Under the pieces are notes generated by a model. That model was not told the DNA's origin. It worked only from the letters and a program-made list of their open reading frames with translations, and did no database searches. A DNA stretch of 64,000 bases from Candidatus Latescibacterota bacterium (GTDB taxonomy: Bacteria > Latescibacterota > UBA2968 > UBA8231). Where the stretch lies: assembly GCA_965223905.1 (NCBI GenBank), contig CBDCXV010000011.1:896001-960000 (forward strand). Direction: 5' to 3'. The translations under genes were made by a program, and so were the position numbers. This document shows, piece by piece, positions 1,253-40,406 of this stretch (positions within the stretch are counted from its first letter, which is position 1; each line of letters begins with the position of its first letter).

Positions 1253-1419
1253 GAAAACTCCTTTTCTAAAGGATCAACCAGCAGGTCCAACAGACCTGGA
1301 ATATACAGTATCCCTCCTGAGCATTATATGCTTTTGACCAGATAAGCTTTTGACCAGCCTATTTTCCCCTTTGCCCAATCCTTATTTTTGCGCTTACATT
1401 TCGGATCTTGCTTTGCAAT

Positions 1420-3411: not shown

Positions 3412-5139
3412 CTAGAGCCTTTTCACATTTCCCTCGTATACCTTTATGAGCTCAGCGTATTTTTTCCGCAGCTCCTCCAGGTAGTAATTGAAGATACTCC
3501 CCTCCTTCTCTTCCTTCACCGCTCTCACCACCATCCCCTGCACCCACTTGTTCGCTAGAGTGTCGAAACTCTCGGCATATCTGTGGAACACCTTGAAGAT
3601 CGAATATCCCCCCTTTGTCTCCACAGGTCCCTGCAACTCGTTCAGTGGAGCATTCATGGCGGTGTTCATCCACTCCTCTCCGTACAGGGGATGCTGTATA
3701 TCGAAGACCCTGAGGACGCCCTCCTCCACATTGTAGCGGCGAATACTGTACTGGCCTATCAGTTCGGACAGTTCGGCCCCTGTCTCGATCTGCCGGACCA
3801 GATCCCTGGCCTGGTCCGGATCTTCGACCAGCAGCTCCTGGAGGTGGGCCTGGGCGGGAATGCGAAAGCGCCGCTTGTGCGATTCGTAGTAGGCCGCCAG
3901 ATCCTCTTGGGCCACCAGCAACCTCTCTTCCAGGACCAAGTCGCGCAAGTGGACGAGCACGAGGTCTTCCTTCTCGGCTTGCAACAACCGGCGAAAAGCG
4001 TCGGTCTGATCCACCCCGCGTCCACGGCCATCGCATGCCATCACCTCGACAGGCAAAAGAGTTCTTTTTAGTTCGACAATTACTTCTTCCTGATTTATTT
4101 GTCGCAATTGCGCCTTTGCCGGCTCTACAGCCTCTATCACCTCTTCCACGCCCAGCACGACATCGCCGAAGGTATATACTGGCAAACGAAGCCGCTCCTC
4201 GGGTAGGGTACTGAGAGAACGTCCATCCTTCAAAACCTGGACGACCACCTCCATATTTTGTGGATGGGAGCGAAAATCGAGTTCTGTCCTGAGTCGCCTG
4301 AGATACCTCTCGCGCAGTATATCCACTTTGAGATCGTGCAAATAGGTTCTGATTTTGTCCCGCACCTCCTCGATTTTCACCCTGCGGCGCTCCCTGGCCC
4401 TGGCGATGACATGGCCTCCTCTGAGGGGGATGGGTCCGGTTGTTCCACCTTCCGGGAGCACGAAGACCCTGCGCACCACTGCCTTGGGGGCATCGTAGGG
4501 AGAGTAGGTGAAGTGATCGGACTTCCCCGAAGGCAGGCCCATCATGCGATCCACCGCGTGAAGACGAGCAACTTCGGCAAAATCCATTCCATTTTCCAAA
4601 AGATCCACCACCTTTTGGGCGGTCTCCTCATCGGGCACAAAGATTTCCTGGCTCACGACCTGTACCGACCAACCTGCCTGCTGGTAGGCCTGTTCGATCT
4701 CCTCCTCCTCTACGGAGACCTCGTCGTAGACTTCGAGCCGCATCATCTCATCGTGCAGCTTCCTCTTTTTCTCCTCTTCCAGCCGCTCTAAGACCTGTCG
4801 ATCCTCTTCCAAGCCTTGCGCCCGAGCTTCTGCGAGCAGTACCCGGCGATCGATCAAGGTCTGTAGATGGCTCCTGTACTCTTCTGCAGTCCGGGGACTG
4901 GAGGGCCGCCCGGAGACAAAAGCGCGCAGATCACCGGCCGTGATCCGGTCCTCGCCGACCTTGGCCAGGAAGGCGGAATCTTCCAGCGGCTGGGCGCATC
5001 CGCCGAGCAAGATCCCCCCCATCAGGAGCAACCACACAGCGAACCGCCGTCTTCTCAGATCCGGACATAAAGAACCAGGAGCCGGAATCCGCTTCCAGCT
5101 CCTGGTTGAAAAACGCCCCGATGCTGCAATTCTAAGCAC
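3412..5139 (-). CDS. PpiC/parvulin-type peptidyl-prolyl isomerase lipoprotein (SurA/PrsA-like, two rotamase domains)
   Basis: Lipobox LLGGC; SurA-N-like LAKVGEDRITAGDL and LIDRRVLLAEARAQGL; two rotamase-like segments (GMDFAEVAR..GPIPLRGGHVI; GAELSELIGQYS..GPVETKGGYSIFKV). Start codon uncertain. Confidence 0.8.
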   Translation of the reverse strand: MLRIAASGRFSTRSWKRIPAPGSLCPDLRRRRFAVWLLLMGGILLGGCAQPLEDSAFLAKVGEDRITAGDLRAFVSGRPSSPRTAEEYRSHLQTLIDRRVLLAEARAQGLEEDRQVLERLEEEKKRKLHDEMMRLEVYDEVSVEEEEIEQAYQQAGWSVQVVSQEIFVPDEETAQKVVDLLENGMDFAEVARLHAVDRMMGLPSGKSDHFTYSPYDAPKAVVRRVFVLPEGGTTGPIPLRGGHVIARARERRRVKIEEVRDKIRTYLHDLKVDILRERYLRRLRTELDFRSHPQNMEVVVQVLKDGRSLSTLPEERLRLPVYTFGDVVLGVEEVIEAVEPAKAQLRQINQEEVIVELKRTLLPVEVMACDGRGRGVDQTDAFRRLLQAEKEDLVLVHLRDLVLEERLLVAQEDLAAYYESHKRRFRIPAQAHLQELLVEDPDQARDLVRQIETGAELSELIGQYSIRRYNVEEGVLRVFDIQHPLYGEEWMNTAMNAPLNELQGPVETKGGYSIFKVFHRYAESFDTLANKWVQGMVVRAVKEEKEGSIFNYYLEELRKKYAELIKVYEGNVKRL

Positions 5140-5905
5140 CCGATTGCTCCTCCGCCACCTTTATGACTCCCTGGTCCACCTTGAAGCGGAACTCGACATC
5201 GACGGTATTTTCCGGATTGCCGCTGGCGTCGAAGGAGAGGACAAATTCGTTCATTTTGACCACGATTTCCTGATTTCTCTCGGGCAGAGGATCGAAGACC
5301 AGAAAACCCGTGAACTGGCTTTCTTTGAAGATCGGACGGTGGCGGTGGTACACGGTCTTATAAACTACGCCCATGCGCTCCAGATTGAGTTCCTTTTCAT
5401 TGCCCGAAATGCCCAGCTCGGTCCTGTAGTATTCGCTGAAAGTGTTTCCCCCCAGGGGATTGGTCCCTTTGCGGCCGGGATCGTAATAGCGCAAGTTTTC
5501 CCCCGTATCAGTGATCAGGATTGATTTGGCCGGATCGAACTCGATCTTGGCATAGGTTTTGTTGATCACGGTCACCTGGAACACGGTAAAGCGCGGGGGG
5601 ATATACCCTTTGTCAGGGTCTTTCTTTTCGTGGGTATAGGGATTGACGTGCCGGGCATCGAACAAAGGCGGGAACCGCTGGTTGAGTTCGTCGTCGGTGA
5701 CGTGCTTTATTTTGATGAGGGTCCCTTCCTTGCTGAAGACCACGGAATTATCTTCCAGATCGATGTAGTAATCCCCGCGTCCCTCCGGCAGGAGGGGCTC
5801 CATGTGCATCTGGTATTTCAATTTAGGTGGAATCAGACCAGCACAACCACACGCGAACCCCACAGCCAACAAAACTAAGATCACAACCGCGCGATCTCGT
5901 CTCAT
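5132..5905 (-). CDS. Hypothetical lipoprotein, paralog of 18262..19059
   Basis: Signal peptide ending FACGC. Shares blocks with the 18262 protein: PYT..GYIPPRFTVFQVTVINKT..IEFDP versus PYT..GYAPPLWTVFDITLINRT..VELDP, and C-terminal FRFKVDQGV versus FHFNVVQGV. Confidence 0.75.
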   Translation of the reverse strand: MRRDRAVVILVLLAVGFACGCAGLIPPKLKYQMHMEPLLPEGRGDYYIDLEDNSVVFSKEGTLIKIKHVTDDELNQRFPPLFDARHVNPYTHEKKDPDKGYIPPRFTVFQVTVINKTYAKIEFDPAKSILITDTGENLRYYDPGRKGTNPLGGNTFSEYYRTELGISGNEKELNLERMGVVYKTVYHRHRPIFKESQFTGFLVFDPLPERNQEIVVKMNEFVLSFDASGNPENTVDVEFRFKVDQGVIKVAEEQSGA

Positions 5906-5950
5906 GAACACAGCTCAATCCTCCTGGTCTCGATGGTGAAAAGATATGAT

Positions 5951-6418
5951 TTAGTTGGGATGGGAAAGCTGGACCTGACGAGCAGCTTTTTGCCTTTTGG
6001 TTTTGGCCGCATCTTCGGTCTCCACGTCGATCTTCTCGATCCCCGCCTGGACGGCTATTTCCATCGCATCTATGACGAAGCCGTGGGGCGTCTTGGCATC
6101 GGCAGTGATGATCAGGGTGGCAGAGCCTGTGCGGCTCTTCTCTCCCCGCAGCAACCCGGCCAATTCCCCCATGCCCACCAGGCGACTGTTGACTTCGAGC
6201 TGCCCTTCGGCCGAGATTCTCAGATTCAGTTTTTTCTCCGGCTTGAGCTTGTCGTAGTTCGTCGCCTCCGGCAACTCGATTTTAAGCTGGGTGGCCTTGA
6301 CAAATACCGTGGTCACCATGAAGAATATGAGCAACAGAAACACCGCATCAATCAGCGATGTCAGGTTCAATTCGACCTGGTTGGCTTCTTCGCTCAGCGA
6401 CCTCCTACCTCGGGCCAT
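5951..6418 (-). CDS. exbD: ExbD/TolR biopolymer transport protein
   Basis: Canonical TM motif LNLTSLIDAVFLLLIFFMV with the conserved Asp; periplasmic motif IITADAKTPHGFVIDAME. Confidence 0.9.
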   Translation of the reverse strand: MARGRRSLSEEANQVELNLTSLIDAVFLLLIFFMVTTVFVKATQLKIELPEATNYDKLKPEKKLNLRISAEGQLEVNSRLVGMGELAGLLRGEKSRTGSATLIITADAKTPHGFVIDAMEIAVQAGIEKIDVETEDAAKTKRQKAARQVQLSHPN

Positions 6419-6424
6419 AGCGCA

Positions 6425-6847
6425 TCATCCTTCCCCGCCTTTGGCAAAGGCAACTCCTTCAATGCCCTGGCCGCGGGCTATGTCAGCGACCTTTACTACC
6501 TCCTGGTGGGGCACCGTCCGATCCGCTTCCAAGATTATGTTCTTGGAATTGTCGGTCTTCATCACCTGGCGTATCTTTTCAGCCAGCCTCGCCCTTTCGG
6601 TGACCTCGCCGTTGACCTGGATTACCCCACCCGGCTCCATTACGATGTTCATGTCCTTGGTCGCCCTAGATTCACTGCTCCCGCTGCCGGGCAGGTCCAC
6701 GCTAAGCCCTTTGGGGTTGACAAAGGTGGTGGCCACCATGAAGAAGACCAGCAGGAGAAACATGCAGTTGATCAAAGACGTCAGATCCGGATTTACGTTG
6801 GTCTCGAAGCGGGCCTTGGTCCTCGAAGAGCGCCTTCTTCGCGCCAT
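6425..6847 (-). CDS. exbD: ExbD/TolR protein with Asn in place of the conserved TM Asp
   Basis: TM motif PDLTSLINCMFLLLVFFMV and periplasmic IILEADRTVPHQEVVKVAD; GGAG-like RBS upstream. Confidence 0.88.
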   Translation of the reverse strand: MARRRRSSRTKARFETNVNPDLTSLINCMFLLLVFFMVATTFVNPKGLSVDLPGSGSSESRATKDMNIVMEPGGVIQVNGEVTERARLAEKIRQVMKTDNSKNIILEADRTVPHQEVVKVADIARGQGIEGVAFAKGGEG

Positions 6848-6872
6848 TTCGCTCTCCTACGCTTGTCGTTGC

Positions 6873-8051
6873 GGGTGTAGCCGCGTCTTTACGCAGCCAT
6901 CGTGTAGGGTTGAGAGGTAGTCTTTTTAAGGTACCAGTTCCAGAAGGCCTCCCATCGTTTCGATTGCACGTGGACTCGTAAGTTGAGAATCTGCTGTCCG
7001 CCTTCGCGCGTCCAGCGCATGCCGCTTCGTTTGAGTCGATGACCGACCAGGGTCTTGGCGGCCGCCTCTACGGGACCACTGGAGAGGATCAACTCCGAAG
7101 CGTGATAGCCAGCGTAGTCCATTTTATCCCGGTTGGTGCGGAAGTAGCCCAGTTCGGTGGTCGCCTGACGATGGCGTTGTGATCCTTTTGGGAGTTGGGC
7201 GGCGTGATAGAAGTCGAGGATGCGGGTGAAGCCGCTGAACACCCGGTGTTCCTCCACGGTGCGCCAGATCTCGCGCTTGCCGTCTGCCAACACCACCCGG
7301 TGCGCATAGCTACCCTGCTGCAAGGCTCGACCTGTCTGGCTCACCAGGCCCTTGACCAGGGTTTTCATCTTCGCCTCGGGCATGCGCGCGGCATAGCGCT
7401 CGTCGACGCGTTGGAGCTCTTCGCCCTCGGGGTCCAGGGGCGTCAGGTAGGTGGCGACCATGCCCACGCCCGCCTCTTTCCAGGCAGTAGATAGTAGATG
7501 CGCTTTCGGTATCGCGGTCCATCGGTCGTTTGGGCGGTCGTCCGCGCTTGGGCGCCGGTTCCCGCAGGGGCACGGTGACGCCGTCCCAACTGACCACCAG
7601 GGTGTCGCCCTCGACATCCAGCGGCGCCGTCTCTTGCAATGCCAGCTCGAGCTGCTCGGCGTGGTCTTCGGCATACTGCCCTACGGTAGTCAACAGGTGT
7701 TGAATGGCGGTGCGCGAGGGCGGCTCGGGCAGCAATTCACTCAAGCTGTCCTCGACATCGGCCGGGACCATGCCGGCGCCAAGAAACGCGGTCAGGCGCT
7801 CCAACTCCGGGACCATGAATCGCTTGACCATGGCGCAACGCTCGTCCATAGGCACGCGGCTGGGGCCGCCGCGATCGGGCTGATACAGCCGCGGCGGCAT
7901 CACGACCTTGCCCCACAGGGTCATCCACTCCTTGTCGACCACCTGCTTGAATCGATACACCTTACCGTGGTGTACGAAGCGGTTTCCAACGCTTGGCTCA
8001 AGCTTGGGGTCTCTCTTTATTAAAGAAATGCGTAAAATGGAGGCTACACCC
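6873..8051 (-). mobile_element. ISKra4-like insertion sequence, defective (1179 bp)
   Basis: 23-bp TIRs GGGTGTAGCCgcgtcTTTACGCA / GGGTGTAGCCtccatTTTACGCA (19/23); 8-bp TSD GTCGTTGC at 6865-6872 and 8052-8059. Confidence 0.88.
6889..7960 (-). pseudogene. ISKra4-like DDE transposase, frameshifted and apparently internally deleted
   Basis: Split over ORFs 7310..7960 (VVSWDGV) and 6889..7674 (VLADG, ILDFYHA, SGPVEAAAK..RLKRSGMRW). Confidence 0.82.
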
Positions 8052-8718
8052 GTCGTTGCTGACCGGACTGGAAACGCACTAGCAGGGTATTTGCAAAAGC
8101 GTGACAGTAGAGCTCAACACTCTTGAAGATCTTATCCGCCCGCCTCGACAAATAGCGGTGGAAGAAGATGGTCGGAATTGCCACGATCAGACCGCTGGCC
8201 GTGGTGATGAGGGCTTCCGAGATCCCACTGGCCACCGCCGCAGGGTCCCCGGCACCCGCCCGAGAAATGGCGTCAAAAGCCCGGATCATCCCCATAATGG
8301 TCCCCAGCAAACCCATCAGCGGCGCCAGCACCCCGATCGTTCCCAAGGCATTGAGCCCGCGTCCCAAGTAGTCGACGCCGGATTCTTCAGTAACCAAGAT
8401 CAACTCCTGTCGCATATCCTCGATATCCGTGCGGTTCTCCAGAATCAGGGTATCGTAGCGCTTGAGCAAAGTGGCAAAAATGTAATTGAGCACTCCACTG
8501 CCCTGTCTGAAATGATCCACCGCCCCTTCTTCTCCCTGGGCTTTCAACGTCTCTTCGGCCGCATTCAGCTCCTCTTCCCCTTTTTGTTCGTCGGGTACCC
8601 GGAACAATCCCCAGAGCCTGTCGATGATAATCCCTACAGCTATCAGCGAACAGAGAAACAAGGGCCACATCATGGGGCCTCCCTTAAAGAATGAATCCAC
8701 CAGAAAATTCTGTGCCAT
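8044..8718 (-). CDS. exbB: MotA/TolQ/ExbB proton channel protein
   Basis: GGPMMWPL; signature APLMGLLGTIMGMIRAF and ISEALITTASGLIVAIP. The last two codons and the stop are supplied by the IS end. Confidence 0.92.
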   Translation of the reverse strand: MAQNFLVDSFFKGGPMMWPLFLCSLIAVGIIIDRLWGLFRVPDEQKGEEELNAAEETLKAQGEEGAVDHFRQGSGVLNYIFATLLKRYDTLILENRTDIEDMRQELILVTEESGVDYLGRGLNALGTIGVLAPLMGLLGTIMGMIRAFDAISRAGAGDPAAVASGISEALITTASGLIVAIPTIFFHRYLSRRADKIFKSVELYCHAFANTLLVRFQSGQQRRV

Positions 8719-8785
8719 GTAATCCCTCCTAGAGGCTAAAATTAATGCGAATCAACTAAGAGATAGAATTCAAATATAGGACTCC

Positions 8786-11700
8786 TTAGAGCCTGTTCTC
8801 CACGATCCAGTCGTGGTGCTGCTTGGCAAAGCTCACGACATCGACATTTTCGGGACTGTCTTTTCCCTTTTCCAGGATTTTCTGGTAGTTCTCTGCTGCC
8901 TCCGACCACCTCCGCATGATTTCGTAGGACAGTCCCAGGTTGCAATAGGCTGCCAGCTCGGTATAAGTCCCCGGGTACTTCTCAACGATCTTCTCGAAGC
9001 CGGCTATGGCTTTGTCGTACTCTTTCGCCTCAAAGAACTTCATCACCTCACCGTAATCCAAACTGGCCTGGATCTCCCTCAGTTCTGCCACCAGGGCTTC
9101 GGCCTTGGGAGCCTCTGGGGAATCGGGGTATTTTTCCACCAAACGATTATAGGCCTCCAGCGCTGGCTCATAGGAGCGGATATTGTAGTAGTAATCGCCA
9201 ACGGAAAACTGCGCCTTTGCTGCGAACTCGCTCTGGGAGTGATACTGCACCACATTTTTCATGGCTGTCACCCCCTCTTCCATCTTTTCCTGCTCAAAAT
9301 AAGCCCACGCCAAGGCGTACTGAGCCGATGCGCTGTAGGTCCCCTGCGGATACTGCCTCAGCGACTCCTCGTAGGCCTTGGCCGCCCGTTCAAAATCGCG
9401 CTCATTGTAGTAGTTCTCACCGATCAAAAACAGCACCTCTTCCTCGTAGATGGAATCGGGATAGCGCTGAGCGAGGACTTCGAAAGCTGCCGCCGCCTTT
9501 TTGAACCAAGTCAGTGCCTGGTAGCTGTGGGCCAGATAGTAGTGGCCGTGGATGCGATTGGGGTCCTGCGGAAACCGCTCGATGTAACCCTCGAAACCCT
9601 TGGCTGATACTTCGTAGTCTTCGGCGTTAAACAGGGCAAAGGAGCTGGAAAAAGCCAGATTGGCACTTTCGCCGGATTGGGGATACCTCTGCAGCCCGGT
9701 GGCAAAGATCGATGCCGCTTCCCGATACTGCTTTTCCTGCAGGAGGGAATTGCCGATGATGGAATAAGCCCGTTCCTTGCGGAAGTACCCGGCTTTGTCG
9801 TCGTCCTCAAATTTCAGGTCGAGCAATTTCTGGGCGTGGTGCATGGCCTGGGCAAAATCCTCCATATCGTAGTATAGTTCGGTCAGCAACATCTGAAAGG
9901 TAGCTGCTTCATGAGGATCGTCGCTGGCGGCGATGAGTTCCTCGTAGTAGCGGGTAGCTTCCTCCTGCAGGTCCAGGCGAATCATGGTGGCTCCCAGCGT
10001 GCGAAAGGCGCTATCCTTGAGGCGGGGCGCTGGATCGAGCTGCAACAATTCCTTCATATCCCTCAGGGTGGCCTCGTAGTTGACTCGAGCGCTAGCCGTA
10101 TCACCGGCCGCATCCTGCTGCTTGGCCACTTCGTAATAGGCGCTGCCGCGGGCCAGGAGTCCACTTTCGGCGATATCCGCCGGCGGCGACTTTTCGAGCG
10201 CCCAGTTGAATTCGCGGATCGATGCCTCGTAGTCGGCCTGAGCAAAATGCACTCTGGCTTTTATATAGTGAAACTGGCTCTGTAGTTCCTTTTCTTTTTT
10301 TTGTCCCAGAGCCTGGCGCAGGACGGCCTCGGCCTGGGCGTAATTTTGTTGGCCTATGTATAATTCGGCCAGGTCGACCTGTAACTGGGTCCACTGGTCA
10401 AAACCCGGTTCCACGGCTTCAAACGAGCCGATCGCCGCTTCTATATTCCCCAACCTCTTGTAAGTGAGCCCCAGCTCCATGTGGGCAACATTGCGCTGGT
10501 CCGAGTCGGGATACTGCTCCAGAAGGGACTGGTAGAGGATATTGGCTTCCTGGTAGTTGCCGATCCCGTACTCGATTCGGGCCACCTGCATCAGGGCAGA
10601 GGGTGCGGCCCCATGTTCCGGGTAGCGCTCCACCAGTTGCTGGTAAAAAGGCTTGGCCTCAGCATTCTGGTCTTTCAGTTGCAGCGAAAAAGCCATGCCG
10701 AAGAGCACATCTGGAACCAAGTCGTTGTCACTGTACTCGTCCAGTAACTGACGGTAGAGGGAAACGGCTTGGTCCAGCGCTGCAACCGATCCTGCGGGAT
10801 CCTGTTTGCGCACCTGCTGTCCGTAGGACTGGTAGGACTGGGCAATGCGGAACAGGGTCTTGTCGCGGGAGAATCCAATCCTGACCGCCACGTCACTATA
10901 GGCGTTGAGATAGATCCGATACTCCTCCGCCGCCTTATCGTACTTTTCTTCATCGTAGAGCAAACGGGCCACAGTGAGCTGGGTCCGGGCCTGGAAGAGC
11001 TTGTCGTCTTCGACCTTTTCAATAGCGTTCTTGTAGGCGGCAATAGCAGCCGCAGTACCGCGTTGCTGGTGGATTAGCTCGGCTCCGCGGATATAGGCGT
11101 TCTGCACCAGGACGGGCTCGGCCGCGTACTCCTCGATCACCACAGAATAGGCCGCGAGCGCCTTTTCTATCTCGCCCTTCCCGGCGTAGATATCCCCCTT
11201 CTTCAACTGCGCCTTGGCCACCAGCTCGCGGGTAGTCTCCTTGACCACCCCTTTGAGCTTGAGGGTGCTCATCTCGATGAGCTCCTCTTCAGACATCTGG
11301 GAGAAGTCATAGCGGGCGATCAGGCGATCGAGAAAATTCAGGGCCATGTCGTACTGATCGAGCCGCTCGTAGCAATCGGCGATCTGAAAGATGGACCGGT
11401 CTGCGCTCGACCCTCTGGGCGCCAGGGTCAGCACCTGCTCGAAGTTCTCGATGGCCACCGGGTAGCGCTCCAGCTCAAAGTAGGACCAGGCCATATCGTA
11501 GTAGACCGCGGTCTCGTACACGTTGTTGGGGAAATCGCGCAGCAGTTTTTTTCCTTCCTGAATGACCTGCAGGTAGTCCTTCAACTGGTAGTTGGTCGTC
11601 AATGTCTGGTACTGAGCCATCACCCGGGTGCGCTCTTCGATATTTTCGTCTTCGATGATCTGGTGGAAATACTCCAGGCTGTGGTTGAGATCCTCCAGGG

Positions 11701-12061: not shown

Positions 12062-12092
12062 TTTTTGGTCTCCGTCACCTGATGGGTGGTAC

Positions 12093-15002: not shown

Positions 15003-15073
15003 AATCGACATCCTCACCATGTGCAGTCTGATTAAACCAACTTTTTCTAGTGCGGCAAAGCTCTCCCTGCGGA

Positions 15074-15958
15074 TCAATGGGCGCGGTATGCGAATCCTGA
15101 CTGGTGAATGCCCCCCAGCCCGGTCGAGTGCAGGGGATAAGTATAGGCGTAGTCAAAATACCACAGTTTCCACCTGAACCCCAGACCCAGATCCACTTCC
15201 TTGGCCTCCCGGTCTGAGGAGAGCAAACGGCCACCCAGCCGCAAGGCAACCCCGCGCGCCCGGGAAGAAAGGGGGGTCTCATAACCGGCCCGCACCTCGG
15301 TGCGCCCCCCGCGCCGTTCGATATCGACCAGGACCTGCCGTCGATCCAGATTGACGCTGGCAGCCAGGACCACCCCTCTCGGGGTTTTGCCCGCCGGATG
15401 TCCGCTGGCGGCGATATTGGCGCGGTTGATATTGGTCAACATTAACCCCAGGCGCATATAGACCAGACGGTGAATCCAGCCCACTTTGTAGATCCCTCCC
15501 AGATCCGCGCTCCAGGCCCGATTCGACAATCCGCTGGTTTTCCAGCCGCTGTAGCGCAGGCTACTGCCCAAGGCCAAGCGCTGGTGCAAGACCCTTCCAT
15601 ACCCCACAATCCCCACCTGTTCGCGCCAATCTTCAACCCCCAGGCTCGACCACCCCAGCTGCAGGCTTCCACCGCCCATCGGCAGCACTGCTCCCAGTAC
15701 ATTCAGGCTCGGGCTTTCGTCCAATCCGGAATAGAGCTGAGCGTGAGCCGTGCCCACCCGGTATTTCTGGGCCCAGGCATTGGCGGCTGGATTGAACCAG
15801 ATGGCCTCCGCATCCACCCCGGCAGTAAATGCCGCCCCCATGCCCGAACTCCGGGCTCCCCCACCGGTGATTTCGAAAGCCGGATACGCCGGCCAGGCCA
15901 GGGCCATCAGCAACCAGCTAATACGCCACAACCAGTGTACCTGTGCGGCTGGTAGCAT
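15074..15958 (-). CDS. PorV/PorP/FadL-like outer-membrane beta-barrel protein
   Basis: Motif GGGARSSGMGAAF..AIWFNPA typical of PorV/PorP/FadL-type barrels; amphipathic strands; C-terminal FDYAY..LGGIHQSGFAYR. The true start may be ~15909. Confidence 0.7.
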   Translation of the reverse strand: MLPAAQVHWLWRISWLLMALAWPAYPAFEITGGGARSSGMGAAFTAGVDAEAIWFNPAANAWAQKYRVGTAHAQLYSGLDESPSLNVLGAVLPMGGGSLQLGWSSLGVEDWREQVGIVGYGRVLHQRLALGSSLRYSGWKTSGLSNRAWSADLGGIYKVGWIHRLVYMRLGLMLTNINRANIAASGHPAGKTPRGVVLAASVNLDRRQVLVDIERRGGRTEVRAGYETPLSSRARGVALRLGGRLLSSDREAKEVDLGLGFRWKLWYFDYAYTYPLHSTGLGGIHQSGFAYRAH

Positions 15959-17597
15959 CGGCCCCGGCTCCCACCCGGATTTCGTAAAGGTAGAGCCCCG
16001 GATTCACGATCCGTCCATCCCGGTCGCGTCCGTCCCACTCAAAGTGATAGGCGCGGGCGCTCCCTTCCTGGCCCAAATGCCGCACCCGCTCGCCATCGAG
16101 GGTAAAGAGCCGCAGCACGACCCCTGTAACCTCCCGGATATTACCCACCACAAAGCGAAAATCCATGGTTTCTCGTTCCAGAGGAGAAAAAGGCCTCGGC
16201 TCGACCTTTACTTCGCTCAGCAGGCTAGGCGGTTCCCCCACAGCCAGGACGACCGAAGCCGCACCGGGTGCTTCCCGGCTGTTTTGCCAGTTCACGTACC
16301 CGTCCTGTCCCTCCTGTTCGCGGCAGCCTACCTGTAGTTCCACCCGGGTCCGATCTTGTAAAAACAGCGCCCTGCCGAAAATTTCCAGCCTGCCCGAATC
16401 CACGATGCGCTCGGCGGCGGCCAATTCGAAGAAGGTGCGCTCCTCGGTGGGGATACTGCGCCAGCGAAAACCCTGTTCCAGATTCTCGTCGTAGACCAGA
16501 ATCCTGCCGTTGTAGCGCAATTCGTCGACGGTCAGGGCTATGCCCTCCAGCCGCATCAGGTCAATGCCGTAATTCCCAGGTTCAAGTTCGAGCGCAGCCG
16601 TGTAAGTCAGGGTTGTCGGCTCCCCTTTTTGCGCTGTTTCCGGCGCCACTTCCCCCAGGATCTGCCGGGCTACCAGCACGGGATCGTAGTCCACCTCCAG
16701 GCGCTGGAGGAACGGCGTGTTGAAGGGCGCCCCGGTCTGCAATATTGCCTGGTACTGAAAGCGCCGGACCGGCTCGGCTCCGGCAAAGAGCTGCTCCCCC
16801 TCTCTATAGCTTTCCAGTTCCTCCCACTCCGGCAGATCGCGCTCTTCCTCCGCGCCCCGGAACTGCATTTGCACCTGGGTCTGAGGAGGGGTCTGGACCT
16901 GCCAGCGGATCCGCCCCGGGTTCACCGACTCGGGGCTGGTCCATGCGCCCGCGATCCGCCCTTTCTCGGCAAATCCCGTCCCGAACACCTCGATCTCCCC
17001 CAGGGCCACCCAGTTGCTGCGATCCTGGCGAATCAAGGTCAGGCGCACAAACCGTCCCAGCCGCGAAAGGGATTTACCTGTTGCGTCCAGGACCGACCAG
17101 GTCGAGTCGGCGCGGGTGTCTATATCCAGTAGGAAATTCTCCGCCTGTTCGGCAAGGAGCCGCCAGGTGTTTGGACTGTTCTGGGTCGCCGTCTCGATCC
17201 GGTAGCCGCGCACAAAGTACTCGGTCTGCAGTTGCGCCGACTCCCCGGCCAGAATCCGCACCCGGGTGATGGCTCTGTCCAGGCCCAGGTCCACAGTGAA
17301 GTTTCGCCCGAACACGTGGGGTGTGCCCGAAAGCCACTCGCTCCGTCCTATTTCGATGCTGCCGTCGGTCAACGGCACCTCCCTGTCCAACTCATTCACT
17401 GTCAAACGTCCCAGCGCCAGATTTTGGTCCCCGTCCAGGAAATTTAGGATCACCAGACTATCGGGATGCACCTGCACGTTCTCCAGATCGGCCAGTCCAA
17501 AGTCCTCTACCTTCCCGGCGGTCCAGCGGCGCAATTCTCCTTCAACGGGACTCCATTTCCCCCCCAGAATCATCAGACAGAGACCGATCAAGAGCAC
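15918..17597 (-). CDS. Secreted protein with discoidin/F5-8-like domain and C-terminal FlgD-Ig / T9SS-CTD-like domain
   Basis: Signal peptide; FTVDLG..GRFVRL..LGEIEVFG (discoidin-like); C-terminus VEPRPFSP..LFTLDGERVR..WDGRDRDG..PGLYLYEI..TLVVAY. Confidence 0.75.
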   Translation of the reverse strand: MLLIGLCLMILGGKWSPVEGELRRWTAGKVEDFGLADLENVQVHPDSLVILNFLDGDQNLALGRLTVNELDREVPLTDGSIEIGRSEWLSGTPHVFGRNFTVDLGLDRAITRVRILAGESAQLQTEYFVRGYRIETATQNSPNTWRLLAEQAENFLLDIDTRADSTWSVLDATGKSLSRLGRFVRLTLIRQDRSNWVALGEIEVFGTGFAEKGRIAGAWTSPESVNPGRIRWQVQTPPQTQVQMQFRGAEEERDLPEWEELESYREGEQLFAGAEPVRRFQYQAILQTGAPFNTPFLQRLEVDYDPVLVARQILGEVAPETAQKGEPTTLTYTAALELEPGNYGIDLMRLEGIALTVDELRYNGRILVYDENLEQGFRWRSIPTEERTFFELAAAERIVDSGRLEIFGRALFLQDRTRVELQVGCREQEGQDGYVNWQNSREAPGAASVVLAVGEPPSLLSEVKVEPRPFSPLERETMDFRFVVGNIREVTGVVLRLFTLDGERVRHLGQEGSARAYHFEWDGRDRDGRIVNPGLYLYEIRVGAGADATSRTGTLVVAY

Positions 17598-17598
17598 C

Positions 17599-18261
17599 TT
17601 AAAACAGGATCTTCTGGGTCAGGTAGGTAACCACGGCTACGGCCATGGCCTCTTCCAGTTCTTTGGAGTTGAAAATCATCTCCATGCCCACCTGCAGCGG
17701 TTGCCTTTTCAAGCTCTTGCCACTTTTGAGGTCCTTGATTTCAACCTCTACCTCTATTTTGTTGGTCTTGCGCGAAAACTTCTTCTCGACCCTCTGACTT
17801 CGGAGAAGGGCCTTGCCGGTGATTTCCAGCTGCGCCTCTGCGGACCCGGCCAGGACCAGTTCAAATGGATTGTCGACCAGTCGCACATCCTCCAGGTCCT
17901 CTACCTTGTCCAACGCCACCAAGACCCGCACCTGCTCGCGGCGCAATTCGCGCAATACCGATCCGGACAGATCTTCGATGCGCGAGGGGCGGGAGATCGT
18001 GACCAGCTCGTTGCCCACCTGGGCCAGGGTATTGGTAACAGCCGTACCCGCGTTGGGATCGCCGCCCCCTATCGACGCCCGCGGATCAATGACGCTGGCC
18101 TTGCTCTCTACCTGGAACTCCTTGATGTAGATCTTGATGGGCTCTTTCGGGGGGTTGGCGAGGCTGGTACCCTTCAGCATTTCGTACTTCAGGCCCCCAC
18201 AACCGCCTAGGACGAGCCCTGCCAGCAGCCCCAGCCCCAGGCTCTTCAGCGCCCTTTCCAT
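17599..18261 (-). CDS. Hypothetical lipoprotein
   Basis: Lipobox LVLGGC; abuts both neighbours (0-1 bp gaps). Confidence 0.75.
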   Translation of the reverse strand: MERALKSLGLGLLAGLVLGGCGGLKYEMLKGTSLANPPKEPIKIYIKEFQVESKASVIDPRASIGGGDPNAGTAVTNTLAQVGNELVTISRPSRIEDLSGSVLRELRREQVRVLVALDKVEDLEDVRLVDNPFELVLAGSAEAQLEITGKALLRSQRVEKKFSRKTNKIEVEVEIKDLKSGKSLKRQPLQVGMEMIFNSKELEEAMAVAVVTYLTQKILF

Positions 18262-19059
18262 CTACTCTTTCTCCATTGGCTTCACACCTTGGACCACATT
18301 GAAGTGGAAGGCCAGATCGGTCCATTCCACGGGATTGCCATACCCCACCTCATACCGGTCGAAGGCCAGGATGAAGTTGTTGATCTCCAGGGTAAAGGAC
18401 TTGCTCTCCGGCGGCAGCGGCGGAAAGGTCAGCTTGCCGGAGTACTTGGAGCCCTTGCGCACTGGTTTTTCCCGGAGGTATTCGCTCTTGCGCCAGATAT
18501 CGTTTCTGTCGTATTGAGCGTGGTAGTTGACCGCGCCGGCGTGGCTGCCCCACTTCAGGTAGCTGTAGTCGAAAAAATGGGGATAATCCTGCCATAACCC
18601 CTCGTTTCCCGGCCCCTTTCCCCCGGAACTGGGGACCGAACCTGTTTTTTGTCGGCAGTAGTAGAAGTTGCCATTGTCCAGGCGCAGAATCGCCTGGGTC
18701 GGATCCAGTTCAACCCGCTCCCGGGTGCGATTGATCAGGGTTATATCAAAAACCGTCCACAGCGGCGGGGCGTAGCCCAACTCGGGGTGGGTCCAGCCGG
18801 TCAGGGTATAGGGGCTGTAGCGCGGATCGTACTCGGCGTCCAGCATCTCGTCGTTGTAAAACTTGACCTTGACCTGTACTCCTTCCAGGCTCCACACCAG
18901 CGAACTGTCGACTGGATCGACATAGTAGGCATCAGACTCGGACAGAACCGGATCAGCCTCGACGTAGTACTGCAAACCGGGCGGAAAGGTCAGACTGCAT
19001 CCCCCCAGCCACAGCAGCGAGACGACGCATCCGAGCATCGATGTTCTGGTCCATTCCAT
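18262..19059 (-). CDS. Hypothetical lipoprotein, paralog of 5132..5905
   Basis: ATG at 19059 just after the upstream stop; lipobox LGGC; colinear similarity to the 5132 protein. Confidence 0.75.
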   Translation of the reverse strand: MEWTRTSMLGCVVSLLWLGGCSLTFPPGLQYYVEADPVLSESDAYYVDPVDSSLVWSLEGVQVKVKFYNDEMLDAEYDPRYSPYTLTGWTHPELGYAPPLWTVFDITLINRTRERVELDPTQAILRLDNGNFYYCRQKTGSVPSSGGKGPGNEGLWQDYPHFFDYSYLKWGSHAGAVNYHAQYDRNDIWRKSEYLREKPVRKGSKYSGKLTFPPLPPESKSFTLEINNFILAFDRYEVGYGNPVEWTDLAFHFNVVQGVKPMEKE

Positions 19060-19066
19060 ACGCTTT

Positions 19067-22006
19067 TCAAAAAGGAGAGATGATTTCCACGAAAAGGACA
19101 TTCTGTTCCAGGTTCCGCTCTTCAAAGAGAGTGTAGTCCCGCCGGGTGCGCTGATAACCCATGAAAATGGTGGAAGCGCCCACCCCGAAGTAATCGGAGG
19201 TGATCCGCAACATGGCGGTATAGTCTCTCTGGCCGAAGGTGCGGTCTTTTTCGACGCGATCGTGGCGCTTGTAGGGCACTCCGGGAAAGCCCTGGGCCCC
19301 AACCAGGAAGTGGGTATTGCCGGTCAGTTTGTACTCCGCCATCACAATCGGAATGTACTCGGACGAGGAGAGTCGGGCATCCTCCTCGGTGTCCACGTCC
19401 TCGTACAACAGGCGGTGCTTGAATTTGGGACGCACCGTCAGGGCGCCCCTGATCCAGGTGTACTCGATTTTGTTGATCAGGGTGAAGCGCGTGCGGATAT
19501 CGTCTGGCTGCAGCAGGCCGCTGCCGTCTTCCAAGGCGATTTCGGCCTGGCTGTTGCGCACCCACAGCAGCGAATTGTTCAGATTTACATTGCGAAAACC
19601 CAGGTACTGCAAATCTACGTAGAAGGTGTTGACCCAGCTGTCGCGCATCAACAGGGGATCCGGAGTGGCAGGCCGGAAAAATCCGGGGTGCTCCGGCGGG
19701 CCATCCGGCTTGTTCAGCCAAGGTATGATATCCGCGTCGTCGGGCGGCAGGTGGAAGATATAGTTGTGGTCGGCGATATCGTCTTCGACTTTCTTCACAT
19801 CGTAGTTGATCTGCAACTCCCCCACCCCTCGCTGCTGAATTTCATAGGCATAGCGCAGGTATACGGCTTCGGCTTTGCCGCCGGCGGCGATTTCGCGGTT
19901 GGTGTACGCGCCCGCGGAAAGATTCGTCCCCAGGCCACCCAGACGGGAAACAGACAGAAAGAAGTGGCGCCCTTTCTGGTCGCGTCGATAGGGATAATCC
20001 GCCAGGTCGTCGTTTTCGCGGAAGTCCGGCAACCCATTGTTGTTGAAGTCGATGCCGTAGACAAACTCCGGGGGGTCGGCTGCGAACATCAAAAAGGGCT
20101 CTTCCCAATCCAGTTTGAAGTTCTCGTTCCGGTCCAGATCCGGAATGTTATCGAAGTTTGCGTCCAGTCCCGGGTACACGCTGGAGTTGCTCCAACCCGG
20201 GTACAAAACCCCTGAAGTGGGCACCTCGCTCAGGTCATCGTCCGGCCACTGATCATCGTCGTCGTTATCTTCCACCAAGTAGTATTCCTGGGTGCGCGAC
20301 TCCACCCGCTGCCCCGGGACAGGCTGCCGGTCTACGTGGAAGGCCATACCGCCACGGCGGCTGTCGTATCCGCCGCTGAAATCGGGCTCAAGGCGGAAAA
20401 TTTCGCCGCCGAGGTGAACACCCCAGAATAGTTCTTTGAGGCCTTTGAGCCAATAAGCCCAGGCTCTCTGGGTGCTGCGCTGGCCCTCGTTGTCGCCCAC
20501 TGGGAACATGTAGTTTTGCAGGTTGTGCGCCACCTCGCCTTCCAGACCTACGCCCACCAGATCGGCCTTCCAGTTGACCGAAGCCAGACTCTGTCCAGTG
20601 GGCATGCCGTAGTCGAAGGAAACCACGCGGCGGTTTCCCCCGGTAGCGGACCGCCCCTCTGATCTGAGGACGGTGTAATAAGGCTCTTCGGCTTCCCTGT
20701 CGATGTCCCACTTGAACGGGCGCTTGGTTCCCGCTTCGGTGCCCACAAAAGAGGCCGGCCACTCCCATTCCTCGGGCGCAATATTGCCGTTCCGATCAAT
20801 CTTGGGAAAATCGTGCTTCTGGCGCACCCCGATGCGGTAGTCGTCGGCCACCTCGGCGGTGAACCGGGCCGAGCGCACGGTGACATCGTCGGGCAGGCCG
20901 AACTCGTAGATCACGGTCTCCTTGCCCATGGCCTCGCGGCTCCCGTCGGCCTGCGACACCCCCCCCGCGACCACGGGCCGCAGCGAGGCATCGAAGTCGG
21001 GATCATCGGGGTCGCTGCTGAGCCGCACAGGCTCCCCGTCCCGTTCGCCCTCGACCACGATATCCAGGCCGTAGACCTTGCCGTTGAACTGTTCCTCCAG
21101 GGGAGAATCGTCGCCGATAAAGACCCGGATGACTCCGGGACCCAGCATAGCGTAGGGCAGGTCGCCCTTGAGGGCGCTGCTGTGGGGAGAAGACGGAAAA
21201 GACATGAGCTGGTTGAGGAAGGTGGAGCCCATACTGGCGTAGTCGCCTACTTGGTGCTGCCAGTGGAGGCCATAGACCAACACGGGTGCCAGATTGAAAG
21301 TCTCCCCCTGTGGTATGCCCCAGAAGGAAAACATCCCGTTCCGCCCACCGCGGCTATAGAACACGGTGGCGCGGTCCCGCCCGTTACCCGCGTCGAGATC
21401 CAGGCGGGCAATCCGCATGTGCCCCTGAGCCAGGGTCAGGGGCGTGAGGTAGGTGCGCACGTCCCGGCCGACCGTGGCGGACCAGTGCAGCCCCTTGTAG
21501 CTGTAGTGACCCAAGTGAAGGCTGCCCCCTCTCGGCGAGCCCCATCCCGCCCCCGATTTGTGGTCGATGAAACTGTACCCGGAATTATCCTTGCCGCTGC
21601 GCGCCTCCACGATTGAAAAAGACCGCTGGTAGTGCGGCCCCATGTAGTTGCCCAGACGGTCCCAGCGTATGTTTCTGTGCCACCAGGGCCGACCGGTATC
21701 CACGCCCCAGGGTATAGTTTCGCGCTGCCAGAGGATGTACCTTTCCTCGGCGTGATTCTGGTAGGGGACGTTGTCTCCAGTGACTAGAAAGAGCCGGTTT
21801 GGCCCTCGGCCGTAGCGGTCGAGCGGACCCCTGATGAAGGGGGGTCGCTGCTGCCACTCTGGCACCAGCCCGTAGGAAGGGTGGGGGCCGGCCGATTCTG
21901 GATGGCGCTGTGCCTCTACCCGGACGATAAGGCCGGCGCAGAGCAAGCAGAGGAGCAACGGCCATGCCCCGGGGCTATGACCTTTGCTTTTGGGCAGGTA
22001 GGACAT
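19067..22006 (-). CDS. Large exported hypothetical protein A (putative outer-membrane beta-barrel with Ca-binding-like insert)
   Basis: ATG at 22006 with GAGGGAG RBS; signal peptide ending VEA; motifs EDNDDDDQWPD, GLDANFDNIPD and DFNNNGLPDFREND; C-terminal FVEIISPF. Confidence 0.7.
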   Translation of the reverse strand: MSYLPKSKGHSPGAWPLLLCLLCAGLIVRVEAQRHPESAGPHPSYGLVPEWQQRPPFIRGPLDRYGRGPNRLFLVTGDNVPYQNHAEERYILWQRETIPWGVDTGRPWWHRNIRWDRLGNYMGPHYQRSFSIVEARSGKDNSGYSFIDHKSGAGWGSPRGGSLHLGHYSYKGLHWSATVGRDVRTYLTPLTLAQGHMRIARLDLDAGNGRDRATVFYSRGGRNGMFSFWGIPQGETFNLAPVLVYGLHWQHQVGDYASMGSTFLNQLMSFPSSPHSSALKGDLPYAMLGPGVIRVFIGDDSPLEEQFNGKVYGLDIVVEGERDGEPVRLSSDPDDPDFDASLRPVVAGGVSQADGSREAMGKETVIYEFGLPDDVTVRSARFTAEVADDYRIGVRQKHDFPKIDRNGNIAPEEWEWPASFVGTEAGTKRPFKWDIDREAEEPYYTVLRSEGRSATGGNRRVVSFDYGMPTGQSLASVNWKADLVGVGLEGEVAHNLQNYMFPVGDNEGQRSTQRAWAYWLKGLKELFWGVHLGGEIFRLEPDFSGGYDSRRGGMAFHVDRQPVPGQRVESRTQEYYLVEDNDDDDQWPDDDLSEVPTSGVLYPGWSNSSVYPGLDANFDNIPDLDRNENFKLDWEEPFLMFAADPPEFVYGIDFNNNGLPDFRENDDLADYPYRRDQKGRHFFLSVSRLGGLGTNLSAGAYTNREIAAGGKAEAVYLRYAYEIQQRGVGELQINYDVKKVEDDIADHNYIFHLPPDDADIIPWLNKPDGPPEHPGFFRPATPDPLLMRDSWVNTFYVDLQYLGFRNVNLNNSLLWVRNSQAEIALEDGSGLLQPDDIRTRFTLINKIEYTWIRGALTVRPKFKHRLLYEDVDTEEDARLSSSEYIPIVMAEYKLTGNTHFLVGAQGFPGVPYKRHDRVEKDRTFGQRDYTAMLRITSDYFGVGASTIFMGYQRTRRDYTLFEERNLEQNVLFVEIISPF

Positions 22007-22051
22007 CCTGACTCCCTCGTTTCCCACAATCCGACAGGGTACTTTAAGCAT

Positions 22052-22088
22052 AAAATTGGGGGACGGGCGCAGTGCCCGCCCCCCAAAA
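22052..22088 (-). terminator. Intrinsic terminator-like hairpin after the first operon gene
   Basis: Minus strand TTGGGGGGCGGGC-actgc-GCCCGTCCCCCAA (13-bp stem with one G-U pair) followed by TTTTA. Confidence 0.6.
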
Positions 22089-22138
22089 GAGTCGAGATAC
22101 TTCAACCAGGTTGTACTTTAGGGAAACACCCTCTTTTC

Positions 22139-23098
22139 CTACTGGTTAAAAGTAGACTTGATCCGACCCCAGGAGTCCTTTTCGACCGCCGTCGCCGAAC
22201 CGGCCGGCGTGTCGGTAAAGACGATGGTCGTGTAATAGGACTGGTCGCCACCCGGAGCGCCATAGCACACCAGCTGACCGCCGTATCCATCGTTGTTGTC
22301 CGGATCGAGGATGAGCCAGTGGAGACCCATTTCCGTACCCGCCTCGGGAATGGCCGGCAGGTCGAATCTCAGCAGGGTCTCCCAGGCGACCTTGCCCTCA
22401 ATGACGTAGTCGGCCTCGCCGCCGAACTCGTCTCCGGCATCCCGGAAGCTGTATTCAAAGCCCTCTACCAGGTCGGGATCATGAGTTTGAGTGCGCAACC
22501 CTTCGACCAGGTATTCCCAGGTGATGTTCACCGCGCTGGCATCCATGGGAGCAGCCACGAAATTGATGATGTTCATGGTCGTGTGCTGGCCATCCGGACC
22601 ATAGGGCGCCTTGGAATTGGTCAGGTCCAGGTAGATGCAGGTGCTGTCGCGCTCCCACCAGCAGAATGGATTTCCTTCGTTTTCTACATCGCGGACATTG
22701 TCGCGCACGTGCGCAATGTACCACCACGCATCCTCGTCCCAGGCGTGCCAGCTGTTACTCCAGGAATCGGCATCCGTGCGGGCTACGCTGGCCTCTTCGC
22801 CTTCGCTCTGGTTGAGCTGGTTGCCGCTTACCAGGCTGATGCCGTTTTCCTGGTCGGCCCAGCCGAACTCGGCTCCTTCCGCATTAATCGAGGAGGGCGA
22901 GCAGGGAAGCTCCAGGGAACCGGCCCATTCTTCATCGCCCCTTACGCCATCCAGGGTGGGTGGGCTGGTGAATTGAGGCAACTCGAAAACGCGAATCAGA
23001 CTCGGATCGGCATTCTGTGCTTCGCCCGTGGTCGGAATGCCCAGGAGCGCTACGAGCGGCAGGAGCAGGAAGAGTGCTGTCTTCATTGTTTCCTCCAT
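22139..23098 (-). CDS. Secreted CBM9/DOMON-like sugar-binding protein with C-terminal TAVExxSWGxIK tail
   Basis: Signal peptide ending GEA; PTLDG..DEEW, AWDEDAWWYIAHVRD and YVIEGKVAW are CBM9-like; paralog of 40407..41237. Confidence 0.72.
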   Translation of the reverse strand: MEETMKTALFLLLPLVALLGIPTTGEAQNADPSLIRVFELPQFTSPPTLDGVRGDEEWAGSLELPCSPSSINAEGAEFGWADQENGISLVSGNQLNQSEGEEASVARTDADSWSNSWHAWDEDAWWYIAHVRDNVRDVENEGNPFCWWERDSTCIYLDLTNSKAPYGPDGQHTTMNIINFVAAPMDASAVNITWEYLVEGLRTQTHDPDLVEGFEYSFRDAGDEFGGEADYVIEGKVAWETLLRFDLPAIPEAGTEMGLHWLILDPDNNDGYGGQLVCYGAPGGDQSYYTTIVFTDTPAGSATAVEKDSWGRIKSTFNQ

Positions 23099-27558: not shown

Positions 27559-27565
27559 GGCGGTT

Positions 27566-28846: not shown

Positions 28847-28920
28847 ATTATTGATCCTTTACGTCGAGCAATAGCTTTACCCCCTCCTGACGTTCAAAAA
28901 GCGCAAAGGCTTCCCGCCAC

Positions 28921-35565: not shown

Positions 35566-35569
35566 CAGC

Positions 35570-40395: not shown

Positions 40396-40406
40396 AGGAG
40401 TGCGCC

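Follow-up and report, generated by a model that had tools for sequence, protein, structure and literature searches.

What does a proton-driven motor of the ExbB-ExbD type do in an operon whose large outer-membrane proteins are not TonB-dependent receptors (TBDRs)? The question is raised by 13 genes of a Candidatus Latescibacterota genome (7.9 Mb, 11 contigs), which occupy positions 3412-23098 of the 64,000-nucleotide stretch analysed here (G000:C11:896001-960000), hereafter the window. Known energised outer-membrane uptake proceeds through plugged 22-strand TonB-dependent transporters; here the ExbBD motor shares a fixed operon with barrels of another and much larger kind, a family with dozens of copies per genome. 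We give about an even chance to the answer that the cluster encodes an energised uptake system of Ton/Glt-like type, peculiar to the Latescibacterota lineage, in which new barrels replace the TBDRs. What we regard as novel is a proton-driven envelope system of Ton/Glt type that combines a new family of barrels with a split TonB, by which we mean a membrane helix and linker on a DUF4159 protein and a TonB_C domain on a lipoprotein. Literature searches returned no description of the cluster, the barrel family or the DUF6785 proteins found in many of the loci with such barrels. Supplements aside, two papers on Latescibacterota genomes are silent on the cluster: one has no mention of TonB, outer membrane, secretion systems or ExbB (PMC12993501), and the other speaks only of classical TonB-dependent import (PMC4454575).

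All 13 open reading frames, which an earlier note had described from the letters alone as co-oriented, lie at the coordinates given there and on the minus strand; coordinates without a contig or locus label are window positions, and bits are compared with family cut-offs from Pfam and NCBIfam scans. The first gene encodes a CBM9-like exported protein (22139..23098; PF06452 CBM9_1, 43.1 bits against a cut-off of 23.4), followed by the giant outer-membrane barrel OMP-A (19067..22105; a frame of 1012 aa with a likely start at 22006), the lipoprotein lipoA of a DUF4352-like beta-sandwich family (18262..19059) and lipoB, a lipoprotein of no named family (17599..18261). Next come a discoidin (F5/8 type C) protein with a C-terminal domain (CTD) of the type IX secretion system (T9SS) kind (15918..17597), a small PorV/PorQ/PorP-like outer-membrane barrel (15074..15958) and a second giant barrel, OMP-B (12093..15077; 969 aa from a likely start at 15002). 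A 1091-aa tetratricopeptide repeat (TPR) protein (8786..12061), an ExbB/TolQ-type proton channel (8044..8718), two ExbD/TolR-type proteins (ExbD1, 6425..6847; ExbD2, 5951..6418), a third lipoprotein, lipoA' (5132..5911), and a SurA/PrsA-like parvulin peptidyl-prolyl isomerase (PPIase; 3412..5139; Rotamase_2, 58.8 bits, above cut-off) complete the set. LipoA' occupies the place where exbB-exbD-tonB operons carry tonB. Every protein outside the motor has a readable signal peptide (CBM9-like, OMP-A, OMP-B, CTD and PorV-like proteins) or a lipobox (LGGC in lipoA and lipoB, LLGGC in the PPIase, and one in lipoA'), except that the TPR protein starts with one hydrophobic helix; all these N-termini were read from the translations. 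The junctions listed range from small overlaps to 67 bp (two reach up to ~130 bp, depending on the start codon), with one exception: exbB and exbD1 are 1196 bp apart, a gap whose content the earlier note had overlooked. OMP-A, lipoA, lipoB and lipoA' have no Pfam or NCBIfam match.

Is this a functional unit? The earlier note had let its proposal stand or fall with gene order in relatives, and the order is conserved. Four genera of the same family (G001, G009, G012 and G015) have all 13 genes in unchanged order, and in a fifth relative (L023) 10 of the 13 run up to the contig end. The CBM9-like gene keeps its first position in five of five relatives, and lipoB, which has a single copy in the genome, is kept in all five. 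Beyond the family, a core of CTD protein, PorV-like barrel, three giant barrels, TPR protein, ExbB, two ExbD and lipoA is found in family f14 (G053) and, with one giant barrel, in f7 (G043); a variant in f13 (G056) has three giant barrels, the TPR protein, two CTD proteins, ExbB and two ExbD, without a PorV-like barrel or lipoA in the stretch read. Chance falls far short of explaining such an arrangement, and the cluster is one conserved unit. Profiles for the giant barrel (A1) and for lipoA (A2) match 94 and 92 of 151 sampled genomes of the phylum, with the same pattern across families (63/63 in f1, 0/30 in f2, 0/19 in f4, 0/2 in f3, 0/5 in f8 and nearly all genomes of the other nine families), an agreement that among related, not independent, genomes is suggestive rather than a statistic. 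That these are merely neighbouring genes without a common function, a view that can appeal to the lack of direct evidence for physical contacts, is hardly credible in the face of the conserved order in relatives and in other families, the matching phyletic patterns, and the recurrence of the gene set four to five times in one genome.

The motor is the most readily recognised part. The ExbB and ExbD subunits that a Ton system requires are present, with Pfam scores above cut-off for the channel (PF01618 MotA_ExbB, 104 bits) and for ExbD1 and ExbD2 (PF02472, 95.1 and 105.1 bits). The best NCBIfam matches are the TolQ equivalog for ExbB (93.7 bits, under the cut-off of 221) and TolR for ExbD1 and ExbD2 (55.9 and 58.4 bits, under 127.3); none of the cluster proteins has an NCBIfam match specific to AglR, AglQ or AglS. 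In ExbD1 the conserved membrane Asp is replaced by Asn (LINC instead of LID), as in four of five close orthologues, whereas ExbD2 retains it in all eight orthologues read; the Asp is also kept in distant ExbD1 copies and in all ExbD2 copies. Proton carriage is thus possible for just one of the two ExbD types.

Behind the motor stands the TPR protein, on which 20 Pfam TPR-type families match above cut-off and whose N-terminal helix is kept in 12 of 12 homologues inspected. Its YbgF-type repeats (TIGR02795) reach 229 bits over eight stretches, well above the cut-off of 90.1, and PorW/SprE matches at 115 bits, under 250; among its 12 NCBIfam matches there is no GltD, GltE or other Glt model. Together with the TolQ and TolR matches, all of them sub-cut-off, these YbgF/BamD-type units could suggest Tol-Pal-like envelope maintenance, or the export of an exopolymer through a TPR scaffold, barrel and lipoprotein in the manner of PelBC, AlgKE or BcsC. 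For such export one may also cite the PgaA, PelBC and BcsC barrels that the VIA structural scan lists for OMP-B (Z 11.8-13.2, no better than unrelated barrels) and the Atlas leads of lipoB, a GNA1162-like/CsgG-like assignment with a score of 0.94 and a lead only. Either function seems improbable to us. The window genes scanned include no TolA, TolB or Pal, and of the Tol-Pal models only that for YbgF-type TPR units scores above cut-off. Nor is there a synthase or glycosyltransferase in the cluster or next to it. The barrel and lipoA profiles match 0 of 56 sampled genomes, mostly near-complete, in four families of the same phylum, and where present the system is multi-copy, both of which suit a housekeeping role poorly.

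The 1196-bp gap that interrupts the motor genes holds a decayed insertion of the ISKra4 family (6870..8050, boundaries approximate, strand not assigned). Two out-of-frame transposase pieces match NF033572 (38 and 98.2 bits), and the stretch shares 86-95% identity with four longer copies elsewhere in the genome, from which it differs by the loss of ~377 bp. In five orthologous clusters exbB and exbD1 are 9-43 bp apart, with no such element. The insertion is therefore decayed and private to this lineage. It may exert a polar effect on exbD1, exbD2, lipoA' and the PPIase gene.

How would such a motor reach the outer membrane? Within the cluster coordinates, neither Pfam nor NCBIfam gives a match to TonB, a TBDR, TolA, TolB, Pal or PorKLMN, as had been noted before. 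The earlier statement holds inside these coordinates and stops short of a TonB-shaped protein encoded just outside them, in a divergent unit on the plus strand. This unit comprises a conserved exported protein of 349 aa with no Pfam or NCBIfam family (23475..24524), the DUF4159 protein in question (24659..25825; 27.3 bits against 25.9) and an FG-GAP/ASPIC-UnbV protein (25822..27558; FG-GAP_3, 188 bits; UnbV_ASPIC, 66.6 bits). Four features recur in the DUF4159 protein and in nine paralogues or homologues: the N-terminus is short and cytoplasmic, a single membrane helix bears a conserved His, the linker is K/R/P-rich, and the head is DUF4159. A helix of the same kind occurs in this genome's canonical TonB (L022:3326-4012). 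A His in such a membrane helix is the mark of TonB. A TonB combines this helix and a Pro-rich linker with a TonB_C domain; here helix and linker sit on the DUF4159 protein. Its gene and that of the FG-GAP/ASPIC protein lie beside the cluster in G001, G009 and G012, and the gene for the 349-aa protein does so in all five relatives with a readable flank. Some DUF4159 paralogues directly follow exbD in other loci, and seven of the ten DUF4159 matches in the genome fall in loci with a motor. Judged from its protein sequences, then, the system is not TonB-less.

Where is the missing TonB_C? LipoA and lipoA' are paralogues (E 1.4e-34) and belong to a family of ten in the genome. Three of the other members, in sister clusters, end in a TonB_C domain of the AgmX/PglI (GltG/GltJ) type (NF033768, 56-65.5 bits against 40), and the general tonB_Cterm model exceeds its cut-off on one of the three; the window's own lipoA and lipoA' are without TonB_C. 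The AlphaFold2 (AF2) model of lipoA' (pLDDT 91) is a DUF4352-like beta-sandwich with a helical insert, closest to YcdA (Z 8.6) and YjhA, a fold that gives no function. No Pfam or NCBIfam family describes lipoB.

The TonB_C tails also bear on a parallel with the Agl-Glt gliding machinery of Myxococcus, which had been drawn before and which these tails make apt. The Agl-Glt/Nfs core complex of Myxococcus and relatives (PMC3169522) resembles the present cluster in having one TolQ-like and two TolR-like genes, large exported TPR proteins and a TonB-like protein alongside lipoproteins and paralogous outer-membrane proteins, and in occurring more than once per genome; the same source reports the Glt 'core complex' from Fibrobacter and some Gammaproteobacteria, sometimes in multiple copies and with a function not known. 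Is the Latescibacterota system, then, a Glt/Nfs-like apparatus for surface transport or gliding, whose motor moves an outer-membrane platform and a discoidin CTD adhesin? The lipoA-paralogue tails fit AgmX/PglI best, and GltG and GltJ only weakly (the GltG model gives 31.8-45.1 bits against 650). No match here reaches equivalog level for GltD, GltE, GltG or GltJ, including on the TPR protein, and an AglR/Q/S-specific match is lacking too. The barrels are ~1000 aa and of another family, a CTD protein and a PorV-like barrel are added, and the cluster has no genes for cytoplasmic partners. Moreover, 34 barrels in 20 loci with varied CTD proteins resemble substrate diversity rather than one motility apparatus. 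A weak argument is that the RNA-library contigs of the cluster come from runs labelled sponge metagenome, a setting without an obvious use for gliding. We think gliding a long shot.

The giant barrels themselves set the system apart. OMP-A and OMP-B are ~40% identical; OMP-A has a signal peptide after the start at 22006 and a C-terminal Phe. On neither does Pfam find Plug (PF07715) at E ≤ 0.01, a model that matches 27 places elsewhere in the genome, and neither matches TonB_dep_Rec or SprA_N. The sole family match is that of SlpA_C (PF21620) on OMP-B, 21.3 bits against a cut-off of 35; it is absent from OMP-A and is precomputed on 10 of 73 homologues. The family is rare, OMP-B having 480 relatives at E ≤ 1e-3 in a library of 1.84 billion representatives; the named relatives are all called 'hypothetical protein' and come almost exclusively from Candidatus Latescibacterota or Latescibacteria.

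An AF2 model of OMP-B, for which the query and OMP-A were aligned with 90 full-length homologues (92 rows), has pLDDT 86.1 and pTM 0.84 and consists mostly of long strands. It is predicted to begin with a disordered stretch with a nearly invariant Asn (23-53). A small unit of four strands (64-94) comes next, and six long strands (107-209) lead to a beta-sandwich insert (233-357) and helices (362-421), after which ~20 further long strands run to a C-terminal Phe; the DSSP string gives ~26-28 strands by our count. Conservation in the family peaks in an Asp/Asn-rich loop (563-658 of OMP-B) with DxNxNGxxDxxE-type motifs, which we take to be EF-hand-like calcium sites; Pfam names no domain there. 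We have high confidence that OMP-A and OMP-B are very large beta-barrels of a new family.

Could the family be a known one in disguise? The best Foldseek matches of OMP-B are SlpA of Deinococcus (E 2.9e-8), MtrB (3.2e-8), LptD (1.1e-5) and the PapC/FimD ushers (PapC, 2.9e-4), with TM scores of 0.14-0.35 (0.17 for SlpA), no profile match, and other partners and genomic contexts. The TBDRs FhuA, FecA and FpvA follow at E 4e-5 to 1e-3 and TM 0.14-0.23. In the exhaustive VIA scan BamA, maltoporin, CymA and PgaA are tied (Z 12.7-13.6, at most 276 residues), a generic barrel likeness that singles out none of them, and the longest alignment is to SlpA (416 residues, Z 11.3). A profile of the barrel family finds nothing among Protein Data Bank sequences at E < 0.2, SlpA included; a remote kinship to SlpA is possible. 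The beta-sandwich insert of OMP-B follows the sixth long strand, the point of the barrel at which ushers carry their plug domain. With no signature, low TM scores and no profile match to solved structures, none of the tests made identifies OMP-A and OMP-B as a TBDR, SprA, BamA or LptD; the earlier note had named a TBDR, SprA or BamA fold of these proteins as fatal to its proposal, and none emerged.

Contrary to what had been supposed, the window cluster is not a single machine. Phmmer finds 34 barrel frames in 20 loci of the genome. Four or five are motor loci like that of the window (C2:266-298 kb, C10:2092-2121 kb, C1:1488-1507 kb and the small contigs C3 and C8). Their two or three barrels and a discoidin/CTD protein are joined by lipoA, DUF4159 and a giant TPR protein; most have ExbB and/or ExbD, and that on C1 has neither within 12 kb. 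A barrel-less mini-locus (L021, G000:C2:358000-370000) encodes a CBM9-like and a lipoA-like protein, a PorV-like barrel (70.5 bits), a 1081-aa TPR protein, ExbB, ExbD and DUF4159. In around 15 satellite loci the barrels, one to three per locus, are accompanied by CTD proteins, PPIase, CBM9-like and DUF6785 proteins. Barrel loci extended by 12 kb on either side make up 7.5% of the genome and hold 46 of 60 CTD-family matches (in 20/20 loci), 13 of 20 PPIase matches and 8 of 10 lipoA matches. DUF6785, a candidate inner-membrane transporter, occurs in 10 of the 20 loci, with 12 copies near barrel loci, and CBM9-like proteins in eight.

The satellite barrels share a conserved N-terminal extension of ~45 residues even though they are only ~30% identical overall. 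The conserved motif appears, in alignment and model, within the N-terminal stretch that is predicted disordered in OMP-B (23-53). It may serve as a docking motif for a common partner, as its sequence conservation suggests. A complex prediction of one such extension (L020:8560-11256:-, residues 35-135) with the TonB_C tail of a lipoA paralogue (L009:936-2171:-, 270-411) scored 0.00 against a mark of 0.34 and yields no verdict.

What occupies the place of these barrels in lineages that lack them? Genomes of families f2 and f4, of the same class, have no barrel or lipoA profile match, and five of them have 9-33 PorV-family matches each. One (G035, of f2) has 36 Plug matches, and 24 of its 28 PorV-family genes lie 3.5-6.5 kb from one of them, counting rows over cut-off and leaving out those marked 'no' and fragments. 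The two loci read in this genome (L062 and L063) encode a SusC-like TBDR (CarboxypepD_reg and Plug), a protein of ~700 aa whose end is CTD-like, a PorV-like barrel, DUF6785/6784 and a sulfatase or heparinase II/III. The triad of TBDR, CTD protein and PorV-like barrel is repeated ~24 times, and by its sequences it is a type of polysaccharide-utilisation locus with T9SS-anchored partners instead of SusD. A third locus, in G081, has genes for PorV and a TPR protein together with those for a CarboxypepD_reg protein and a protein of 871 aa, and its CTD is not significant by hidden Markov model.

The same neighbours, namely CTD protein, PorV-like barrel, DUF6785 and glycan-related enzymes, thus surround a TBDR in the sister families and, in the window's family, a barrel of the new family with its own motor loci, and we prefer uptake for this reason. 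Import and secretion had both been entertained before; the comparison favours import, since SusC-like receptors hold the barrel's place. The broader likeness to Ton, SusCD and RagAB systems lies in a proton-driven ExbB and ExbD motor, a transducer with a conserved-His helix and a K/P-rich linker, and many large-barrel paralogues, every one accompanied by surface proteins and by a protein of the inner membrane, in the position of real SusC-like receptors of the sister families. The differences are as marked. The barrels have no Plug or TonB_dep_Rec and, by strand count, are larger than the 22-strand receptor; the transducer head is DUF4159, with TonB_C on a lipoprotein in paralogous loci; the surface partners are CTD proteins of T9SS type rather than SusD lipoproteins; and the 1091-aa TPR protein and the PPIase are fixed members. 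No pair of SusC-like TBDR and SusD-like lipoprotein occurs in the cluster or among 71 proteins of the satellite loci, and the likeness of the barrel loci to polysaccharide-utilisation loci is functional and positional only.

The abundance of CTD proteins calls for another possibility to be weighed: a machine for the secretion or surface attachment of CTD proteins, in which the barrels would be translocons or anchors, ExbBD would replace the PorLM/GldLM motor and the PPIase would act as chaperone. PorV/PorQ/PorP-type barrels hold CTD proteins on the cell surface, and a discoidin protein encoded directly beside a PorV-like barrel fits that paradigm. Here the pair is embedded in the ExbBD-TPR-barrel operon, and both members score below cut-off: the PorV-like protein has 39.6 bits for NF033709 PorV_fam (cut-off 90), and the CTD protein 21.4 bits for F5_F8_type_C_2, 18-21 bits for F5/8 type C and 18.5 bits for FlgD_ig (cut-off 27). 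Paralogues score better, with 70.5 bits for PorV_fam over the full model length (L021:3692-4642) and, above cut-off on CTD proteins, FlgD_ig (32.6 bits), CHU_C (29.2 bits) and F5_F8_type_C (40.4 bits). CTD-family genes lie within 12 kb of the barrels in 20 of 20 loci and abut 20 of the 34 barrel genes on the same strand; PPIase paralogues occur in 12 loci, a PorV-like barrel belongs to the core, and the TPR protein has its sub-cut-off PorW/SprE match. The solved SprA translocon complex also includes a PPIase subunit. Of GldK, GldL, GldM and GldN, only GldM was searched for across the genome; it has no match, which is uninformative because its model is silent in all 14 control genomes as well.

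Secretion nevertheless seems unlikely to us. The genome has its own PorU (617 bits against 420) with an adjoining PorV (218.9 bits) and a SprA-like frame of 2069 aa (C10:1150349, 98 bits). A search with the PorU model gave 157 first-look candidates, of which 51 were scored; they match mostly the CTD part of the model and lie mostly away from barrel loci. DUF6785 and CBM9-like proteins in the loci suit uptake better, and the sister families hold TBDRs, which are importers, in the same place. A protein of the FGE-sulfatase type between the exbD genes of the C2 locus (L012:17272-18747) was tried as a sign of a PorK ring and rejected, its GldK match (79 bits against 350) being at family level only.

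How might the uptake that we prefer work? Proton flow through ExbB and ExbD1/ExbD2 would generate force in the inner membrane and pass it to the TonB-shaped DUF4159 protein, with the membrane-anchored 1091-aa TPR protein as a periplasmic scaffold. Lipoproteins of the lipoA family would connect the motor and transducer parts with OMP-A and OMP-B. At the surface, the discoidin protein, exported by the T9SS and held on the PorV-like barrel, may join with the CBM9-like protein to capture a macromolecule such as a glycan, and the energised barrels would then admit it to the periplasm. The PPIase lipoprotein could act as chaperone, either to the barrels or to the CTD proteins. The ~32 remaining barrel paralogues lie in loci similar to polysaccharide-utilisation loci, where they would do what SusC-like receptors do in sister lineages. 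A bolder and more tentative version, which we think doubtful yet worth stating, extends this to many Latescibacterota families: TBDRs would have been replaced there by unrelated ~26-28-strand barrels that bind T9SS-delivered surface proteins and are energised by ExbBD through the split TonB.

Several observations weigh against an uptake system of this kind. We infer the substrate and its class, the direction of transport, the physical contacts and the role of the PPIase from gene set, gene order, co-occurrence, folds and domain content. The barrels have neither a Plug domain nor a TonB box recognised by Pfam, and because of this their gating by force is something we purely infer. TonB_C is absent, in Pfam and NCBIfam scans, from every protein of the window cluster, and the window's DUF4159 copy barely exceeds its cut-off (27.3 and 26.8 bits against 25.9). 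This copy of the cluster may also be impaired downstream of exbB by the ISKra4 remnant, and the phyletic pattern shared by barrels and lipoproteins overstates their co-occurrence. Satellite loci mostly have no PorV-like barrel, so that the parallel with the sister-family triads is incomplete. Their 71 proteins include few recognised carbohydrate-active enzymes (one GH32/GH43-like, one DUF4838 and one beta-helix protein), and the bodies of most of their CTD proteins match nothing. A dedicated PPIase is not usual in uptake loci.

If the barrels are energised importers, the mechanism would be new, plug-less and with an unusual transducer, and it would explain how an abundant, uncultured phylum of sponges and sediments feeds on macromolecules; should the split TonB be real, it would be a second, independent solution to energised outer-membrane transport. 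If they are instead exporters or anchors, they would represent a new energy source for surface display of the T9SS type. Either way, ~10 protein families now annotated as hypothetical gain a testable role.

Is the cluster found in RNA? Four RNA runs of one study, labelled sponge metagenome, yielded contigs over 18-25 of 30 cluster bins, where bins without contigs carry no meaning, and most of these contigs are 99-100% identical to the window. Summed contig depth, a poor measure of expression, is 10.6-30.6 over the CBM9-like gene in all four libraries and does not exceed 4.9 elsewhere in the cluster. The contigs come without information on strand, transcript ends or co-transcription, and DNA carry-over is possible, so that their support for the uptake reading is reduced. 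Loose contig ends lie at 6873 and 8006, near the approximate boundaries of the ISKra4 remnant.

The rest of the window echoes several of these themes. The cluster is flanked by a polytopic DUF6785/DUF6784 membrane protein on the plus strand (1408..3357; 374 and 77 bits), and a second such protein, with a CBM9-like protein directly after it, is encoded at 38284-41237. FG-GAP/ASPIC-UnbV proteins and separate ~420-aa TPR proteins (25822-31502 and 41349-43073) are types that both recur in the C2 motor locus. Between them, at 33393-37780, lie genes for the permease and solute-binding protein of a sugar-type ABC transporter, as well as for a pair of GFO/IDH/MocA oxidoreductases, of which one is split or truncated at 258 aa. 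A Mutator-family transposase is encoded at 46099-47358, and over the last 8 kb (56000-64000) the G+C content climbs from ~0.58 to 0.67-0.71.

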